Below are positions 5,705 to 43,462 of a DNA stretch of 64,000 nt, in pieces; positions within the stretch are counted from its first letter, which is position 1; every line of letters begins with the position of its first letter. The translations under genes and the position numbers were made by a program. The notes under the pieces were generated by a model that was given only the letters and a program-made list of their open reading frames with translations, made no database searches and was not told where the DNA came from. This stretch comes from Escherichia coli (lineage in GTDB: Bacteria; Pseudomonadota; Gammaproteobacteria; Enterobacterales; Enterobacteriaceae). The DNA lies in NCBI RefSeq assembly GCF_016903815.1, contig NZ_CP069973.1; one strand, given 5' to 3'.

Positions 5705-8609
<2,905 letters not shown>

Positions 8610-27969: not shown

Positions 27970-30192
27970 TTGGCTGTTCAATTCGCTTATCCGTGGAACG
28001 TCCCACGGTCGGCAATCTCCAGCCCATACCTTACTTATGAGCAACAGCATCGCCGCGACCGTATGTTCGCGGCTTTGCTGCATGCAAAAAAGGTGCTTTC
28101 TCTCCAGCCCGACTGCGTGCGGTTAGATGTTTATCGCACTGCTGCGGTGCTGGAGCAAAATCAGGGTAGTCAACGAGCCAATGCATTTTTAATCAGCTTC
28201 TGCAAAAAGGCATTGCCGCGTCTTGAACTGGTCGCAAAAAAATACGAATGCGCTGGTATCAACAGCAAGGTATCAACCGCTGTTTTTGGAAGTCATTTTG
28301 ATACTCAGCAAATGCAATATCTGTCGTCACGCATGGTTAATATGGTCGCCCGATATAACCGTCTCCCGGACATGTCGCGCGCTGATGTTGACCTGTTGGC
28401 CGCTGATATTGCTAATTTCATTCGTGGTGAACTTGCCAACATTAATGACCACGGATTCGGCGAGCTTAAAACGCTGTACACCTGGTATATTCGTGCTGGC
28501 TTTATTTCCCTCCAATTCAACGTTATCCCACCACATTGGGAGCGGGTTGAAAAAAAATATGTCGGTGCGGATGAAATCGCACCGGCTATCGCCAAAATGT
28601 TTAACGATGGGTGGTGGCGCGGTCGTTTGCGCCGTGTAGCAGCTACGTGGCGCGAACACCTGCAAATTGCAGTCGGCAACGTCAGTAAGAAAAAAAACAC
28701 TTACGCGAGTAAAAACTGCGTGACTGACTGGCGTGAACAAAAGCGCCGCACTCGTGAATTTCTCAAAGGTCTGGATCTCGAAGACGAAGACGGCAACCGT
28801 ATCAGCCTAATTGAAAAATATGATGGCTCAGTTGCTAACCCTGCGATTCGCCGCTGTGAGCTCATGACCCGCATTCGTGGGTTTGAAAACATCTGTAATG
28901 AGCTCGGTTATGTCGGTGAGTTTTACACTCTAACCGCGCCGTCAAAATATCACGCCACGACTAAAGCCGGTTACCGTAACAGCAAATGGAGCGGTGCCAG
29001 CCCGGCTGACACGCAAAACTATCTAACCGGTATCTGGGCGCGTATCCGTGCCAAACTACATCGGGAAGATGTCCGTATTTTCGGTATTCGTGTCGCCGAG
29101 CCCCATCACGACGGCACTCCACACTGGCACATGCTGATGTTCATGCTGCCGGAAGATGTTGAATATGTTCGCTCCATCGTCCGTAAATACGCATGGAAAG
29201 AAGACCGCCACGAACTGAAAAGCGATAAATCCAAAAAAGCACGTTTCCACGCGGAGTCCATTGACCCGGAGAAAGGCAGCGCAACCGGCTATGTTGCTAA
29301 ATACATTTCAAAAAATATCGACGGTTATGCTCTCGATGGTGAAACCGATGATGAAAGCGGTGAGCTGCTGAAAGAGACAGCCCCCGCCGTTTCAGCATGG
29401 GCTGCGCGCTGGCACATCCGTCAGTTTCAGTTTATTGGTGGTGCGCCGGTGACGGTTTACCGTGAGTTGCGTCGCCTCGCTGATACCGAAACCGCGCACG
29501 GTCTGAGCGTTGAGTTTGCCGCCGTCCATGATGCCGCCGACGCTGGTGACTGGGCTGGTTATGTTAATGCTCAGGGTGGGCCGTTTGTCCGTCGCGATGA
29601 TTTACAGGTGCGCACACTGTATGAACCGCGTACCGAGCTTAATCAGTACGGTGAGGAAACGGTATGTATTAAGGGGGTCTACGATTCCTCCATAGGTGCA
29701 GGAAGCCCGATTTTAACCCGGCTCACTCAGTGGAAGATTGTTCCGAAGCGTGCTGTTGATTTGGCCGTTGACCTTCAGGACGGCAAAGCCGTCCCTCGGA
29801 GTTCTGTCAATAACTGTACGGGAAGCGAAAGCGATCCACCGATACTGGATTTAACAAAACCACTGAGTCGGCGTGAAAGACGAGAATTGACCAACCGACT
29901 CAGGAAGCAAAAGCCAGCAGCACGGCGAAAATTCATCCACGGAACGGATGAGCAAAACGCAGCTATAGCTAAAACTATCGATGAGATACATCTGACAACC
30001 GGCATTAATATCAGCCGGGGCGAAGCCCTGCACCTGATGGCCGGTGGTAAAAGTTGTTTTGATGGTAAATGGCTACGCGGAACGGCCAAAGGAGAAATAT
30101 TTTCCGCAGCACCATCGCATGAAGCTAAAGCTCGGAAAATCCTTAATCGTGTTGCGGCGATGGCTGAAGCATCAAAACCAATACATGAGTAA
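27970..30192 (+). CDS. replication initiation endonuclease (P2 gpA-like rolling-circle Rep)
   Basis: 740-aa product with HxH metal motif (HWHMLMF) and active-site Tyr context (YVAKYISK). Confidence 0.9.
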   Translation: MAVQFAYPWNVPRSAISSPYLTYEQQHRRDRMFAALLHAKKVLSLQPDCVRLDVYRTAAVLEQNQGSQRANAFLISFCKKALPRLELVAKKYECAGINSKVSTAVFGSHFDTQQMQYLSSRMVNMVARYNRLPDMSRADVDLLAADIANFIRGELANINDHGFGELKTLYTWYIRAGFISLQFNVIPPHWERVEKKYVGADEIAPAIAKMFNDGWWRGRLRRVAATWREHLQIAVGNVSKKKNTYASKNCVTDWREQKRRTREFLKGLDLEDEDGNRISLIEKYDGSVANPAIRRCELMTRIRGFENICNELGYVGEFYTLTAPSKYHATTKAGYRNSKWSGASPADTQNYLTGIWARIRAKLHREDVRIFGIRVAEPHHDGTPHWHMLMFMLPEDVEYVRSIVRKYAWKEDRHELKSDKSKKARFHAESIDPEKGSATGYVAKYISKNIDGYALDGETDDESGELLKETAPAVSAWAARWHIRQFQFIGGAPVTVYRELRRLADTETAHGLSVEFAAVHDAADAGDWAGYVNAQGGPFVRRDDLQVRTLYEPRTELNQYGEETVCIKGVYDSSIGAGSPILTRLTQWKIVPKRAVDLAVDLQDGKAVPRSSVNNCTGSESDPPILDLTKPLSRRERRELTNRLRKQKPAARRKFIHGTDEQNAAIAKTIDEIHLTTGINISRGEALHLMAGGKSCFDGKWLRGTAKGEIFSAAPSHEAKARKILNRVAAMAEASKPIHE

Positions 30193-30266
30193 TTCATATC
30201 CATATCATGCACATACAGCAATCGCTCTATTCGTTTTTTTTCTTCCCATCTTTTGCCAATACGTGC

Positions 30267-30286
30267 TACTGTATAAATATACAGTA
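30267..30286 (+). promoter_or_regulatory. LexA operator (SOS box) upstream of tum/dinI-like pair
   Basis: TACTGTATAAATATACAGTA, near-perfect CTGT-N8-ACAG palindrome, followed by GGGAGGG SD and ATG at 30306. Confidence 0.75.
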
Positions 30287-30305
30287 ACCCTATGGGAGGG
30301 ACTTC

Positions 30306-30488
30306 ATGGTTGGCGAACATTTCAGCCGAACGCAGCAAAAGTGGGCTTGTGTGCAATTTATTGCCGAGGTATCTCTGATTGCAAACTGCAAGCCATCAGA
30401 CTTAAAGCTCGCGCTCACTCTCATTGCAGACCTAGCAAACAGCGAAAATAACGAAACCGAAGATGATAATTTTTATAAGGCTGATTAG
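30306..30488 (+). CDS. small protein, candidate Tum-like antirepressor module
   Basis: 60-aa ORF directly downstream of the LexA box; function inferred from position only. Confidence 0.45.
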   Translation: MVGEHFSRTQQKWACVQFIAEVSLIANCKPSDLKLALTLIADLANSENNETEDDNFYKAD

Positions 30489-30491
30489 ATT

Positions 30492-30722
30492 ATGAGAATC
30501 AATATCACGTTGGATAAAGAGCAAAAATTAGGGCAACAGATCATTGATGCTTTTCAAAATGAAATAACACATCGAGTACAATGCGTTTTTCCTGCAACAA
30601 AAGTTAACGTTAAGAAAGGGTCAATGACTGGTGTAGAGGCTATCGGATTCGATAAAGAGGCGGACAGAGAAACATTAGGCAGCATATTACAAGAGATTTG
30701 GGAAGACGATAGCTGGCGTTAA
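30492..30722 (+). CDS. DinI-family protein
   Basis: 76-aa product with DinI-like C-terminus (…LGSILQEIWEDDSWR). Confidence 0.75.
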   Translation: MRINITLDKEQKLGQQIIDAFQNEITHRVQCVFPATKVNVKKGSMTGVEAIGFDKEADRETLGSILQEIWEDDSWR

Positions 30723-30761
30723 ACATAATAACCGTGCTGGCGCAAAAACTAGCTTTTTGCG

Positions 30762-30795
30762 TCGGCGGGGTTGAGTAACGAGCCCACGAGGCTTA
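30762..30795 (+). repeat. direct repeat copy 1 (GGCGGGGTTGAGTAACGAGCCCACGAGGC)
   Basis: About 80 percent identical to copy 2 at 31165..31198; follows a hairpin. Confidence 0.5.
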
Positions 30796-30921
30796 AGTCC
30801 TGCCTTTCAAAATTTCTCAATGTGCTATTGATGACACGCCCATGATTAATGAGGCATGACCTGAGATGGTTTTATAGTGGCGTTTTGACGGCACTGATTA
30901 AAATTCATTGAGGGTGATAAT

Positions 30922-31131
30922 ATGCATCGACTACCAGGTGAAATACCGCAACACAAAACTAAAAGCATCAAACTGATGGCCATCGTTCATCGTTTGCAGC
31001 AGATAATGGTCAATGAGAATTTGACACCCGCAGAGCTGGTCGGGTGTGCCGAAATAGTCAGGGATAATTACGGCAAGCTGGATAGCATCAGCAGGTCGAA
31101 ACAATACGCACCACCACCACGTCGACGATAG
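30922..31131 (+). CDS. hypothetical small protein (69 aa)
   Basis: Good SD (GAGGGTGA) 6 nt upstream of ATG; flanked by the two direct repeats. Confidence 0.4.
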   Translation: MHRLPGEIPQHKTKSIKLMAIVHRLQQIMVNENLTPAELVGCAEIVRDNYGKLDSISRSKQYAPPPRRR

Positions 31132-31164
31132 CAAACGCCGCCGGTTCTGAAACTCGCTTTCAGT

Positions 31165-31198
31165 ACTGGCGGGGGTTGAACAACGAGCACCGCGAGGC
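31165..31198 (+). repeat. direct repeat copy 2 (GGCGGGGGTTGAACAACGAGCACCGCGAGGC)
   Basis: See copy 1; lies in the convergent gap between the 69-aa ORF and the 313-aa gene. Confidence 0.5.
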
Positions 31199-31205
31199 GT
31201 TAGCA

Positions 31206-32147
31206 TTAATTTATTTTTAATGAATGGTAATCTCGTGAGTTGACCGAAGATTTGAGATAACTGCAATCATTAACCGACAGTATTGCCGCTAATAGGCGAC
31301 ATACCAGTGCCTGCATTTGCAGCAATATATCGTTACCATATTGACTGTTGTTAACACTTGAGAAACCAAGCGGTTGACCAAAAAAAATAGCCTCATGAAA
31401 ATTATCATTGCGGATGCCAGAAATGTTTTTTTTACCTGACACCCATGTGGGGATTGATAACCCATAAATTTTGCACATCCACTTTAATCGCTTGTAATGA
31501 TTTGGCGGTTTTTTATCAGGAGCCTTGTCATGCTCAGCCCACGACAAAGCAAAGCACCCATCAAGTGCCATGTAAAGGTACTGGAATTTTTCAAAAGAAA
31601 GGTATTGTGGGTTTTGAGATAAGAATAGTGCATGCACCACTGCCGCAATTCTTTTGGGGGAGTGCGCATCCTTATGTTTGCCATTTATATAATTAAGAGC
31701 CAGTTCTATGACTTCTTTTTCAGAGCATCCAACGAGAATAAAGTCGGTTAACTTAGTGGGCTTGATAGTGGTTGCATCTAAAAAACCAGCGTCAGTGGTT
31801 GTCAATCTTATTCCCTTGAAAAAAGAAAGGCACCACACAATAAAGTTGAGAGTTTCTAACGAGGATGTATTTTTTAATTTTAGTGTGTGCGTTTTGGGCA
31901 TACTGAATACTCGGTGACTATAAGGCATTGTGGATATGCCACCATTAAGGTTATATACATCTTGGTTTCCAGGGTATATCCAACCTTTCACAACGTTTTT
32001 ATCATTATTAACACGCTCCACTTTCTCATTGAGACCAGGTAAAGTAAGCAAAGAAAATTGTTCAGTCTCAATGTTAACTTCTACTGGATAGTATCCAAAC
32101 TCCGACATAATCTCATTGGGTTGCTGTTCGTCAACTTCACCTTGCAT
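31206..32147 (-). CDS. accessory protein (313 aa) with Rx4H motif; candidate HEPN-like abortive-infection protein
   Basis: A+T-rich ORF in the region between replication gene A and cos; motif GIRNDNFHEA (R-x4-H); no other recognised domain. Confidence 0.65.
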   Translation of the reverse strand: MQGEVDEQQPNEIMSEFGYYPVEVNIETEQFSLLTLPGLNEKVERVNNDKNVVKGWIYPGNQDVYNLNGGISTMPYSHRVFSMPKTHTLKLKNTSSLETLNFIVWCLSFFKGIRLTTTDAGFLDATTIKPTKLTDFILVGCSEKEVIELALNYINGKHKDAHSPKRIAAVVHALFLSQNPQYLSFEKFQYLYMALDGCFALSWAEHDKAPDKKPPNHYKRLKWMCKIYGLSIPTWVSGKKNISGIRNDNFHEAIFFGQPLGFSSVNNSQYGNDILLQMQALVCRLLAAILSVNDCSYLKSSVNSRDYHSLKIN

Positions 32148-32384
32148 ATCTTTCTCCGTTCAAAAATAGGCTCGATAATTATCGAGAGGCTATCATGTTT
32201 GGAAAGAATCAATGTCCGTAATTTTTGTAAATTTAAGGTGATTTATCAATAAATAAGCTGTGCATGCAACAGGTGCATGGTTCTGCATGCGCCGGGGTTA
32301 CCCGTTTTGTACGTGCGCCGCAAGAGCTGGCGGGGATCCAGAGTGGTCATGCAACTGCATTAAAACCGCCCCATAAAGCGGGCA

Positions 32385-32403
32385 GGCGTGGCGGGGAAAG
32401 CAT
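32385..32403. other. candidate cos site (cohesive end)
   Basis: GGCGTGGCGGGGAAAGCAT closely resembles my recollection of the P2 cohesive end (GGCGAGGCGGGGAAAGCAC); embedded in a GC-rich non-coding stretch near Q. Confidence 0.55.
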
Positions 32404-32622
32404 TGCGCGCCAGCAGTGATGCGTAATAATAAAAATTATCCTCTGAGCGCGTCGTGATGGCGCTGTCGTGGTCGCTGCTGGTTCGTTGGTGGTCGGGTGT
32501 GTTCGTGCGCGTGAGACGCATCTGATGCGTGATGGTGGTGTGCATGGAAAAGCCACCAGGAGCAGCGGCTTTACAGGAGTGGCAGGATTCAAACTGCTAA
32601 TTATGTTTCTACTATGATTAAA

Positions 32623-33627
32623 CTAATTTACATGTATGTAGAGTTCACCGTCGCCAGACCAATCGGGACACTCTAAAACAAGCCCAAACTGCTTGAATAT
32701 TTCATCAATGATTATTGTTATCTCCCGAAAATCACCAAAACCTGTAATGTGCTGGTCATTAAACTTCCCATAAAGATTCTGAAAAGCAATGCCTAATTCT
32801 GATAATTGATATCTTATCTTTGAGTTGGATAGTGTAAGGGATAGCTTTGGATCGTATTCTTTAATATTGATGTTTAGAGAATGGACATAACCCATCGCAT
32901 AAGCATAAGAGTTGATGATTAGCCTGATACGTTTTTTTACTTCGAGATACATGTCATTCAGAGAAATATTACCGTACTTATAACCCCAGATGAGTTTTTC
33001 AATCTCGTCAGATACTTCATTTACAACAGTGTCAAGATTCTCTAAAAATAAATCGATAGTTTCTTGAGGGGCAGACCCCGAAGACATGTAATTAGCGAGA
33101 TATTCAGACCATGCACGCGTGGCTGAGATAAGAAGCGCGCTACCATACTCGTTGACTGTAAAGTTTTGGGCTAAGCATGTTAGTAAGTTTTTTTCATGTA
33201 CGTGCACTAATTCATGGTGAATGCGATGGATGACTGCGAGGTATCCTTCTTCTTTCAGTTTTAAGAAGCTACCATCATTGAAAAGCTCAACAAAAAAATC
33301 AATCGATAGCACAAGGGTATATTCTTCACATAGCCCATCATTGCCAATTTTTGTTACTAACTGCCCGACGGCTGCGCCCTGTTTGCTATTGGTAAATGAA
33401 CTAGGGGATTTGTGTTGGTAAGAGGATGTTACCTTTTGAAGAGCTTCACTGAAGTTATAGGAAACAATCACGCATTTTAATTTGGAGATATCAAGATTGA
33501 GATTTTTTGTTAAAGCTCGGATAGCTTCTAGTGTGAAATTACCGATATTATTTGCTTCTTGCTCAGTAGCGAAACCTTCGAGGGTTATTTTAAAATCAGT
33601 TTCCAAAATATTAATCTCCGCGCCCAT
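32623..33627 (-). CDS. accessory protein (334 aa) with HExxH motif; candidate zincin-like metallopeptidase
   Basis: A+T-rich ORF between cos and portal gene Q; motif HRIHHELVHVHE with Glu about 23 residues downstream. Confidence 0.65.
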   Translation of the reverse strand: MGAEINILETDFKITLEGFATEQEANNIGNFTLEAIRALTKNLNLDISKLKCVIVSYNFSEALQKVTSSYQHKSPSSFTNSKQGAAVGQLVTKIGNDGLCEEYTLVLSIDFFVELFNDGSFLKLKEEGYLAVIHRIHHELVHVHEKNLLTCLAQNFTVNEYGSALLISATRAWSEYLANYMSSGSAPQETIDLFLENLDTVVNEVSDEIEKLIWGYKYGNISLNDMYLEVKKRIRLIINSYAYAMGYVHSLNINIKEYDPKLSLTLSNSKIRYQLSELGIAFQNLYGKFNDQHITGFGDFREITIIIDEIFKQFGLVLECPDWSGDGELYIHVN

Positions 33628-33704
33628 TGTTTTGATATTCGATGCACTATAGCTTTCGCAGATTGCATCTTCAATAATGAGCGCAGAGATTGTGGCGGCC
33701 TAAG

Positions 33705-34751
33705 TTATTCTGGGTTGTCGAGGGTGTACTCTTTGAATCTGATGACCTCCATGCCGAGCCAGTCATTTACCTCCCTGAACCGGTCCTGTAGCGGCGACAG
33801 CTCGTTGCGCACAAATACCTTTGCCACCTTCTCAACATCACCGAGTGAACCGATATTCTCGGGCTTGCCGCCCATGAGCTGGAACGGTACGCGGTGCGCG
33901 TCCATCAGATCGGCGGCACTGGCCTTCTTGATGTTGAAAAAGTCATCCTTTGTGGCGACCTCGCTCAGTGGCACGATTTTGATGCCGTCCGGTTTTCCGC
34001 CGGGAGCGTAGAAAAACAGGTTCTTAAAGTTGCCGAGCCCTTTTGAGTTGCGCATCGCCTCGCGCAGCGATTCGACGTCGGTCGCGCTCTGCGCCGGGTC
34101 AGTCACATACATGATGTAACCCGCGTGCGCGCCGTTCTGATAATACTTGCGGCGGAACAGCGTCGCGGATTCATTCAGCCAGGCGGAATTTAGCGCGCTG
34201 AGATATTCGGGCAGGCCGTAAATCTCCTGATTAATGTCGGGCTCCAGCAGGTGAAACACGGTATCAGGCGCGAACTCGTGCGGCTGGGTGAAGTTTTCCA
34301 CAAACCAGAAAATCGAATCGTCGACTCCGCGTCGGGTGTATTTGGCTGGCGAGGCCAGCAGTTTGATTAACTGGCCGGTGACGCTGTGGCGCTGCTCAAG
34401 AAAGGCGTTACCGAACACCAGATAATCGAGCGCAAAGCGGCTGAAATCCTGACGGGATAACAACGGGTGCGGAATGTAGGTGCTCGCGAGCACGTTACGC
34501 TTAACATAAATTGGCGAGCTGTGATGCACGGCAGAGCGCAGGCTCTTTGCCAGCCCTGAGAAGCTGACCGGCGGCTCGTACCATTTGCCGTTACTGATGC
34601 ACTCGACGTAATCCAGAATGTCGCGCTTATCGAGCACCGGCACCGGCTCGCCGAAGGTGAACGCTGTCGTTTTTGGCGGTGCGCTGGCGGTCAGTTGTTG
34701 TGGTTTGCTGGCCTTTTGTGCGTTGGCTTTACGGGATTTTTGTTTACCCAT
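33705..34751 (-). CDS. portal protein (P2 gpQ-like)
   Basis: 348-aa product, size and position match P2 Q; adjacent to terminase. Confidence 0.9.
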   Translation of the reverse strand: MGKQKSRKANAQKASKPQQLTASAPPKTTAFTFGEPVPVLDKRDILDYVECISNGKWYEPPVSFSGLAKSLRSAVHHSSPIYVKRNVLASTYIPHPLLSRQDFSRFALDYLVFGNAFLEQRHSVTGQLIKLLASPAKYTRRGVDDSIFWFVENFTQPHEFAPDTVFHLLEPDINQEIYGLPEYLSALNSAWLNESATLFRRKYYQNGAHAGYIMYVTDPAQSATDVESLREAMRNSKGLGNFKNLFFYAPGGKPDGIKIVPLSEVATKDDFFNIKKASAADLMDAHRVPFQLMGGKPENIGSLGDVEKVAKVFVRNELSPLQDRFREVNDWLGMEVIRFKEYTLDNPE

Positions 34752-42519: not shown

Positions 42520-42563
42520 AGGTGGGCGTGCCCACTGAGTTGGGTTCGATTCCCTAACCTCGT
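42520..42563 (+). other. tRNA 3'-end-like fragment (T-arm-like GGGTTCGATTCCC), not a complete tRNA
   Basis: T-loop consensus TTCGATT with flanking G/C stem; upstream part cannot be folded into a cloverleaf. Confidence 0.3.
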
Positions 42564-43390
42564 ATTATTCCTCTCGATATTTTTATTGCTGGGTTTTCCT
42601 TTCTTATTTCATTTTTAATTTGCTCATCACAAATTAAATAATCTATGTTTTTTGCTTTAACAAGTTCTTTAACGCTAATGTTAATTGAATTTAATAGATT
42701 TGCATTCCGCATGTTAGCCCCTTCATAAGTAACGGATTTAAAATCACATCCTTTTAATATGCAGCTTTTCATTTCGCTATCTGTAAAATACCCCCCTTCA
42801 AAACTGCAGTTTTCGAAAGTGACATTTTGAAAACATGTATTAAATGCCTTAATATTTCTTAGCTTGCAGTTTTTGAATTTAACACTCTTAACTCTATTGC
42901 CTGTAATATTTAGAGCTTGAATTGTGCAATTATCGAAAGAACAATCTCTAATGTATGATTCGCTCATATTCAAGCCGGTTAAGTCAGCGTCTTTAAAATG
43001 TAAATATTTGATAGTGGACATTTTATCAAGTTCAATCCTTGGAACTTGAATGTTATATATTCCTTTAGCATTTAACTGACGTATGATTTTTATCTTCATA
43101 ATATTCAGTTCTGCAGAAGAATGCTTTGCCAGATTTTCAAGATCTTCAATTAGTTCGTGAATAGCATCTTTATTTTGCCTTTTATTTTCAAAATAGTAAA
43201 GAATCACACCCAAAACAAGAAAGTCTAAAATTGAAGAATTTGCATTAACAAGAAAATTCTCCATGAATTTTGAGTTGTAGTTATCATTATAAACAGACAA
43301 CCCTACTATAAGCCCGGAGTATAAAAAAAAGATACCTATAATATATTTCATATTGCTTATTGTACGCCTAAAAGATGAAGTTCTTTTCAT
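42554..43390 (-). CDS. membrane-anchored pentapeptide-repeat protein (accessory/moron)
   Basis: Very A+T-rich ORF; start chosen at MKRTSSF (AGGT 5 nt upstream); two N-terminal hydrophobic segments, then tandem 5-residue repeats (…DADLTGLNMSESYIRDCSFDNCTIQALNITGN…). Confidence 0.7.
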   Translation of the reverse strand: MKRTSSFRRTISNMKYIIGIFFLYSGLIVGLSVYNDNYNSKFMENFLVNANSSILDFLVLGVILYYFENKRQNKDAIHELIEDLENLAKHSSAELNIMKIKIIRQLNAKGIYNIQVPRIELDKMSTIKYLHFKDADLTGLNMSESYIRDCSFDNCTIQALNITGNRVKSVKFKNCKLRNIKAFNTCFQNVTFENCSFEGGYFTDSEMKSCILKGCDFKSVTYEGANMRNANLLNSINISVKELVKAKNIDYLICDEQIKNEIRKENPAIKISRGIIRG

Positions 43391-43462
43391 TACTACCTGC
43401 CATATGTTTTGTGTGATTTTCGAATGAGTCAACACTCAAATGATACATGAATGCACACCGAA

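Follow-up and report, generated by a model that had tools for sequence, protein, structure and literature searches.

A putative HEPN protein and a putative zinc protease carried as separate single-gene cassettes at the cos-flanking hotspot of a 186-type prophage of Escherichia coli

Introduction

The cos-proximal gpA–gpQ region of P2-like phages is a defence hotspot, from which Rousset et al. (2022, PMC9122126) recorded 1,650 gene arrangements and curated 169 systems; in their tests of eight additional systems and of old-tin, defence was observed for three of the eight and for old-tin (PMC9122126). Here we analyse this site in a 64,000-nucleotide stretch of the E. coli contig NZ_CP069973.1 (assembly GCF_016903815.1; hereafter the window, numbered from its first nucleotide), in which a prophage carries two large open reading frames (ORFs), Orf313 and Orf334, and a small one, orf69, between a DinI-family gene and the portal gene Q. 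An earlier reading of the window by a model, made from the sequence alone (hereafter the sequence-only reading), had taken this interval as one possibly undescribed anti-phage or abortive-infection locus. We find instead that it holds three independently acquired single-gene cassettes; Orf313 is likely an RNA-cutting HEPN protein, to judge from its motif and predicted fold, and Orf334 is likely a zinc protease.

The old/tin hotspot of P2 is the same cos-flanking A–Q site and shows, as here, high turnover and short cassettes of a single gene or a few genes. According to a 2026 preprint on P2 and P4 elements, 19% of P2-like elements have no recognisable defence genes and carry uncharacterised genes at these loci, and unknown cassettes of the P4 hotspot were defensive in six of eight tests. 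Both large proteins of the present locus are already catalogued. In the Rousset tables, Table S5A gives the exact arrangement WP_001622301 + WP_001622299 + WP_001622297 + DinI + ..., and Table S5B gives a homologue of Orf313 (74% identical) as system #11, the eleventh most frequent cassette of the P2 hotspot, with 218 occurrences, no Pfam domain and no note; system #76, recorded 51 times and without domain annotation, is identical to Orf334 (PMC9122126). Table S2 includes neither protein among its tested constructs (PMC9122126). The 'Putative HEPN' construct that was tested (pFR103) was considered as a possible Orf313 and ruled out, as the same tables identify it as system #13 (DUF4209). Peptides and accessions of Orf313 and Orf334 were not found in the files of DefensePredictor (Science 2026) or in the supplements of the 2026 preprint, files that may hold no sequences. 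The suggestion that the locus is undescribed therefore holds only in part: both proteins and their arrangement are on record, and they are unannotated and absent from the tested constructs. What is added here is the fold-level assignments, the placement of one cassette on each side of cos, the position of Orf334 inside a late-operon unit and the fixed spacing between Orf313 and cos.

Several single-protein defences offer comparisons. ApeA (Gao et al. 2020; bioRxiv 10.64898/2026.03.20.713152) is a HEPN protein of ~600 amino acids (aa; 601 aa), with a large N-terminal domain ahead of a C-terminal HEPN domain, whose motif arginine is needed for defence (bioRxiv 10.64898/2026.03.20.713152), and HEPN_Apea entries in the Rousset tables indicate that ApeA-type genes are cargo of both P2 and P4 hotspots (PMC9122126). 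HepS (Gifsy-1, PMC13043305) and Tha (S. aureus prophages, PMC11087260) are prophage HEPN RNases that sense structural (tail) proteins of an incoming phage and are not set off by the prophage that carries them (PMC13043305, PMC11087260). HepS is reported to be produced constitutively and to cut tRNA anticodon loops; proteins of this type are tetramers activated by the tail-tip protein J (PMC13043305).

On the protease side, Lit (prophage e14, MEROPS U49, ~300 aa) is, like Orf334, a stand-alone prophage-encoded protein with an HExxH motif. Lit is activated by a phage late protein, cleaves EF-Tu and aborts infection.

Three conserved genes around cos

The three ORFs lie exactly where the sequence-only reading had placed them, between the DinI-family gene and Q:

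30922–31131, plus strand: orf69, a small conserved protein of 69 aa; matches phrog_11386 over its full length (E 1.5e-47).
31206–32147, minus strand: Orf313, 313 aa; phrog_5937; P2-hotspot system #11 of Rousset 2022.
32623–33627, minus strand: Orf334, 334 aa; phrog_11743; system #76 of Rousset 2022.
32385–32403: cos, 19 nt, GGCGTGGCGGGGAAAGCAT, identical to the annotated cos of phage 186 (186 positions 1–19).

The three ORFs are genuine genes: every one aligns over its whole length with a PHROG family (E 1e-47 to 1e-197), and conservation across genera rules out chance ORFs in A+T-rich DNA. For orf69, a separate small conserved gene with the core KLMAIVHRLQQIMVNENLTPxELVGCAEIVRDNY, substitutions are also biased towards third codon positions (e.g. 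4/3/17 and 11/5/23 over the three positions).

The absence of any recognisable phage structural or replication role, as first supposed, was upheld. The PHROG families of all three proteins are listed as function unassigned, and searches of the proteins against Pfam, PADLOC (candidate families included) and NCBIfam returned no family match. Scanning every member of the 37-, 34- and 60-sequence alignments with Pfam gave no family assignment either. Of the checks that the sequence-only reading had proposed, profile searches (Pfam and PADLOC) were thus blank, and fold comparison pointed to a HEPN protein (Orf313) and a zincin (Orf334). Because Pfam, PADLOC and NCBIfam are blank, the case for defence rests on fold and on guilt by association.

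Base composition sets the two large genes apart. The GC content (and GC at third codon positions, GC3) is 0.386 (0.369) in Orf313 and 0.376 (0.364) in Orf334, against 0.559 in Q and 0.569 in P (GC3 0.713 in Q and about 0.71 for Q and P). With a window mean of 0.509 and a standard deviation (sd) of 0.049 in 1-kb windows, both genes lie ~2.5 sd below the mean. The claim that all three ORFs are more A+T-rich than the flanking phage genes is therefore correct for Orf313 and Orf334 and wrong for orf69, which at 0.481 is not A+T-rich.

Orf313, a likely HEPN protein

Orf313 very probably combines an N-terminal alpha/beta domain (~12–138) with a C-terminal HEPN domain (~143–298). Two features of HEPN proteins were found: an all-alpha helical-bundle fold in the predicted structure and a conserved Rx4–6H motif. 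The latter corresponds to R246-N-D-N-F-H251, whose RNxxxH form is invariant in 37 homologues (45–88% identity), as are N247 and E252, so that the Rx4H motif first noticed in the sequence is a genuine conserved catalytic signature.

Profile searches with Orf313 gave nothing in Pfam at E ≤ 10 for the query or at E ≤ 0.1 for each of the 37 members, and no match in PADLOC at E ≤ 1. The UniRef entry of one homologue (P0115) is named 'Apea-like HEPN', and a Pfam scan of the P0115 sequence is blank. Sequence-profile searches of the PDB with the protein families returned nothing meaningful. A likeness between residues ~243–283, which include an 'FFGQP'-like stretch, and the N-terminus of E. coli NrdB (R2) was noted (E ~0.009) and set aside as probably due to chance.

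ApeA and Orf313 are both single genes and resemble each other in layout and in the form of their motif (R-N-x3-H: RNKITH in ApeA, RNDNFH in Orf313), but Orf313 is only half as long and has no match to Pfam HEPN_Apea (PF18739) or PADLOC ApeA, permissive thresholds included. HepS homologues, compared by description only, are shorter than 250 aa (the authors' cut-off) and single-domain, with the catalytic His at ~105, whereas Orf313 exceeds that cut-off, has an extra conserved N-terminal domain and carries its motif at 246–251.

Homologues of Orf313 occur in several kinds of mobile DNA. One lies in an integrative and conjugative element (ICE)-like island of P. aeruginosa, 3 kb from a Gabija-like pair of an OLD-TOPRIM ATPase and a UvrD helicase; one in Acinetobacter directly follows a DUF4238 gene, and DUF4238 is a P2-hotspot gene validated against T7 (PMC9122126); one in Stenotrophomonas is cargo of a Tn7-like element; and one is a moron that sits within the head module of an unrelated phage and is encoded on the other strand. 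As a side observation, an AlkZ-like (PF06224) gene always precedes the Orf313 homologue in Aeromonas veronii (L074–L076, 5684–7963), including at L075, where the upstream flank differs. The two may form a two-gene module in the A. veronii lineage.

Orf334, a likely zinc protease

Orf334 is predicted with high confidence to be a soluble protein with a gluzincin-type Zn-metallopeptidase fold. Three features of a zincin were found, namely the HExxH motif, a downstream Glu and, in the predicted structure, the catalytic-domain fold. Across 60 homologues, with identities as low as 16%, neither H138-E-L-V-H142 nor E175 varies; E175, 33 residues past H142, belongs to a WSEY motif. Judging from its position, E175 would be the third zinc ligand, on the downstream helix. 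The HExxH motif singled out by the sequence-only reading has therefore turned out to be a conserved catalytic signature, with E175 as its companion. The best structural matches are true peptidases. The RefSeq form of the protein is 327 aa long, with a TTG start at 33606 after GGAG, and fits most homologues.

Orf334 shares 10–13% identity with gluzincin catalytic domains (M1 aminopeptidase, thermolysin M4, collagenase M9 and lugdulysin M30), and differs from them in being compact (~330 aa), in lacking their accessory domains, in falling outside the Pfam families and in belonging to a family carried on mobile elements. No Pfam family was reached at E ≤ 0.001 in the 34 or the 60 members (sub-threshold hits were Peptidase_Mx1, DUF4932 and M13), and Orf334 itself matches none of the Pfam peptidase families, Peptidase_U49 included. 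Homology to Lit was considered and rejected: hhalign of the Orf334 family profile against E. coli K-12 Lit gave a probability of 5.1% and aligned only the 19-column HExxH helix, whereas the fold is that of M1 and thermolysin-type gluzincins.

The family is large (at least 357 clusters at 50% identity, ~320 aa) and is found as single-gene cargo of P2-like myoviruses, siphovirus prophages, CTX-like inoviruses and Tn7-like defence islands. In a Tn7-like island, an Orf334 homologue has an AAA+ ATPase/S8-protease pair (IetAS-like) and SMODS+SLATT on one side and a type I restriction–modification (R-M) system on the other. IetAS is also the seventh most common cassette of the P2 hotspot (PMC9122126), which suggests that Tn7-like elements and P2-like phages draw on one shared, circulating pool of cargo. 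Another homologue, in a Psychromonas island, is accompanied by a type I HsdR, an Xre/MbcA-type antitoxin, a VspR-family gene and a helicase; one lies in the moron region of a siphovirus prophage; and one in Shewanella stands beside NERD and cold-shock/Excalibur genes. Neither the Orf313 nor the Orf334 family has a conserved partner gene, and distant homologues of the two never co-occur.

Two kinds of carrier were observed in passing. In the Tn7-like element (L084, 1871–6964), the IetAS-like pair, SMODS+SLATT, the Orf334 homologue and the type I R-M system follow one another in series. In L073 and L082 (both 7001–7972), Orf334-family cargo lies by the zot, DUF3653 and integrase genes of CTX-like filamentous prophages in marine Gammaproteobacteria (L082 is Vibrio harveyi), an unusual carrier for a putative anti-phage gene.

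Independent cassettes at an established hotspot

We then compared the locus with its relatives. Of 5426 complete E. coli genomes, 97 have Orf313-like DNA, 25 have Orf334-like DNA and 16 have the whole interval, the last at ≥99.6% identity; of 44 matching phage records, one carries the whole interval. The variability among related P2-like prophages that the sequence-only reading expected is thus evident.

The window proteins and cos were also placed on 58 IMG/VR loci recovered with both family alignments. Only two of these contigs carry both Orf313 and Orf334. Orf334 occurs without Orf313 in L010, and Orf313 without Orf334 in L011; strain 1008S13 reads A-tum-DinI-orf69-(other small ORF)-cos-Orf334-Q, and strain GD33, of true P2 type, has Orf313-cos-Q without Orf334. 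The small gene orf69 is convergent with Orf313 and stands beside it in roughly half of the loci, but it also occurs without Orf313 (L010, L022), and Orf313 without it (L032, L035, L038, L050–L065); on this co-occurrence pattern, orf69 was rejected as an antitoxin or partner of Orf313. Conservation of the same three genes together across P2-like phages was not seen, as each occurs without the others.

Orf334 always directly follows Q in the 58 loci, even where Q is 33–34% identical (L021, L023). On the other side, the distance from cos to the Orf313 start is ~256 bp (32148–32403 in the window) in the great majority of P2/186-like contigs (L024–L065), at Orf313 identities of 50–100%; L060 and L061, with extra sequence between cos and Orf313, are exceptions. 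Such near-constant spacing implies that the cassette has a set boundary where the functional cos region ends. Relative to cos, Orf334 is the left-hand gene and Orf313 the right-hand one, reading away from the site; orf69 is a third unit.

The prophage in the window is a 186-type member of the P2-like phages (Peduoviridae). From 30200 to 34000 (3.8 kb), the window matches Escherichia phage vB_EcoM-613R3 (Peduoviridae) at 100% identity, and the gene order is cII-fil-B-...-A-tum-DinI-(cargo)-Q-P-O-N, which sharpens the P2-type order recognised at first. The borders are as follows:

27970–30192: replication gene gpA, left of the cargo region.
30269–30284, plus strand: LexA box CTGTATAAATATACAG, a perfect consensus 22 bp upstream of the tum-like ORF; context, not cargo.
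30306–30488, plus strand: tum-like ORF, phrog_1993, labelled 'UV induction of prophage' in ON470592.
30492–30722, plus strand: DinI-family ORF, phrog_189 (E 6e-30) and NCBIfam NF007893 (E 1e-13).
33705–34751, minus strand: portal gene Q (homologue of 186 W), 'portal vertex protein GpQ', the right border of the cargo.

The tum-like and DinI-family ORFs are conserved 186-type genes that form the boundary on the replication side; here they are two separate ORFs, not a single fused gene. The NF007893 match of DinI (51 bits) is below the curated cut-off of 111. The pattern CTGT-N8-ACAG occurs four times in the window against 0.7 expected, once directly upstream of 30306–30488. In keeping with phage 186, the LexA box fits SOS control of the tum/DinI pair; it marks the left border of the cargo region as SOS-controlled. 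The cargo is placed between A and Q and adjacent to cos, as gpA–gpQ hotspot cargo is in P2/186-like phages. Together with the low frequency of the whole interval, this bears out the view of the A–Q interval as a variable cargo region: in this 186-type P2-like prophage, the interval is the known accessory hotspot around cos.

Terminators and promoter-like signals

The non-coding spacer between the two large genes is GC-rich (0.57 over 32300–32600) and contains the 19-nt cos, so that the cos-like sequence suspected there is indeed the 186 cos; cos was detected in nearly all related loci. The signals around it are:

32366–32385: conserved GC hairpin abutting cos; read on the minus strand, a terminator-like stem followed by TTTTAAT.
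32566–32552, minus strand: tW, terminator of the late P–Q (186 V–W) operon, assigned from a terminator-like site and 186 homology.
33646–33674, minus strand: promoter-like TTGAAG-17-TATAGT in the 77-bp gap between Q and Orf334; a consensus match only.
32171–32249, minus strand: A+T-rich region upstream of Orf313 with two sigma-70-like hexamer pairs; consensus matches only.

Homology to the left arm of 186 (186 positions 1 to ~190) extends from 32385 to ~32580 and includes tW. In phage 186, tW (164–187) is 8 bp from the stop codon of W (portal), and cos is 176 bp from the portal stop. In the window, ~1.1 kb is inserted between the portal stop (33705) and tW, made up of the 77-bp gap with its promoter-like site and then Orf334. 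As tW is kept downstream of Orf334, the gene was inserted between the portal stop codon and tW; it is therefore co-oriented with P and Q and shares tW with them. Being upstream of tW, Orf334 should also be transcribed with P and Q in the late phase. Two terminator-like hairpins, tW and the conserved cos hairpin, separate Orf334 from Orf313.

Each large gene has promoter-like hexamers and a GGAG upstream. Within the A+T-rich stretch ahead of Orf313 (~115 bp), the hexamer pairs are TTGATA-17-AAAAAT (32249–32221) and TTTCCA-16-GATAAT (32205–32178), and the GGAG Shine–Dalgarno sequence lies 7 nt ahead of the ATG. A perfect 16-bp palindrome, CTCGATAATTATCGAG (32186–32171), overlaps the second and best -10-like hexamer and could be a candidate operator for some regulator. 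Two 'hypothetical protein' coding sequences in public annotations, of 51 aa (32264–32419, plus strand) and 61 aa (32360–32545, minus strand), lie over cos and its flank and are very likely spurious calls in non-coding packaging DNA.

Other cargo in the window

Away from cos, a 293-aa ORF (42554–43435, minus strand) occupies the 1-kb segment of highest A+T content in the window (GC 0.32). It has an N-terminal membrane segment with a weak match to the SLATT of DRT (PADLOC E 6e-5), followed by pentapeptide-like repeats. Its flanks are presumably P2 late (tail/baseplate) genes, and this is probably a second cargo/defence hotspot among the late genes.

Anti-phage role and alternative explanations

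We infer an anti-phage or abortive-infection role from the folds, the hotspot position and the neighbours of the homologues, and on balance we lean towards both large genes being anti-phage effectors. By analogy with the single-protein HEPN defences ApeA, HepS, Tha and PrrC/RloC, Orf313 would be produced as a latent dimer in the lysogen, under its own promoter; its N-terminal domain would sense a cue from the infecting phage, and the HEPN site would then cut tRNA or other RNA, stopping translation and infection. Orf334 would act as a Lit-like cytoplasmic zinc protease and, on detection of a rival phage, cleave a protein of the host or of the phage; its expression would come both from a promoter of its own and from read-through of the late P–Q operon. 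More tentatively, and somewhat short of probable, Orf334 might found a hitherto unrecognised family of stand-alone zincin-protease anti-phage effectors that work as Lit does but on another scaffold, and Orf313 might be a small sensor-effector of the ApeA-like HEPN kind whose sensor domain is new.

Several observations weigh against an anti-phage role. The hotspot also carries non-defence cargo, namely partition systems and a cytolethal distending toxin (PMC9122126), and our literature search found no paper on either family and no phenotype for either protein. Some homologues have uninformative contexts, such as the Aeromonas homologue of Orf313 among housekeeping genes with its AlkZ-like neighbour, and the Shewanella homologue of Orf334 near groESL. 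Promoter-like sites in the region (12) show no enrichment over shuffled sequences (8.8 ± 2.7), and the expression signals are for this reason to be taken as inferences. Finally, Orf334 lies inside the late P–Q transcription unit, which would suit a function in the lytic cycle.

Because of this co-transcription, a lytic-cycle or counter-defence role stays the main rival: Orf334, and possibly Orf313, would serve the phage's own lytic cycle, with Orf334 as a late protease acting on host proteins or defence factors and co-transcribed with portal and terminase. The orientation of Orf334 with P/Q, its place 77 bp past the Q stop and before the ancestral terminator tW, and its persistence directly after the portal gene in divergent P2-like contigs agree with such a role. 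We nevertheless consider it unlikely, given that only 25 of the 5426 E. coli genomes have the gene and most 186/P2 relatives, phage 186 included, do without it; that homologues reside in non-phage defence islands, Tn7-like elements and inoviruses that have no portal; and that its strongly deviant GC content marks a moron.

An equally improbable explanation is that the cassettes are lysogenic-conversion, addiction or selfish cargo, for example a stress-responsive RNase toxin that stabilises the prophage or a protease acting on host physiology or virulence. Against it, neither gene has a conserved partner resembling an antitoxin, the absence of a signal peptide or hydrophobic stretch (from sequence reading only) predicts a cytoplasmic location for both proteins, and several homologues sit inside clusters of recognised defence genes. 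There is little chance that the enzymes differ from what their folds suggest, Orf334 being a non-peptidase metal hydrolase and the HEPN domain of Orf313 a non-catalytic binding module, as the gluzincin triad HExxH+E is invariant family-wide in a protein whose best structural matches are true peptidases, and the RNxxxH of Orf313, which does not vary between genera, matches the ApeA motif in form. The original proposal of one multi-gene anti-phage or abortive-infection locus across cos (e.g. a HEPN toxin held by a protease or orf69 antitoxin) can practically be dismissed: the three ORFs are adjacent, their combination is stably inherited, nearly identical in sequence, in the 16 complete E. coli genomes and orf69 is next to Orf313 in many loci, but each gene is found without the others in closely related phages, distant homologues of the large genes show neither co-occurrence nor a conserved partner, cos, tW and the hairpin separate the genes, orf69 is convergent with Orf313, and the Rousset tables curate both large genes as separate single-gene systems.

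Implications

The view of prophage hotspots is unchanged by these results, which add a further instance of a known phenomenon. If Orf313 and Orf334 are indeed anti-phage effectors, two single-protein immune effectors would be added to the E. coli/P2 repertoire: a half-size HEPN sensor-nuclease and an uncurated-zincin protease. To our knowledge, few defences rely on a protease alone, Lit being the classic example. As system #11 is frequent (218 occurrences) yet unannotated, a function for it would fill a visible gap; and because both genes are small and partner-free, discovery of their triggers and targets by escape mutants would be straightforward.

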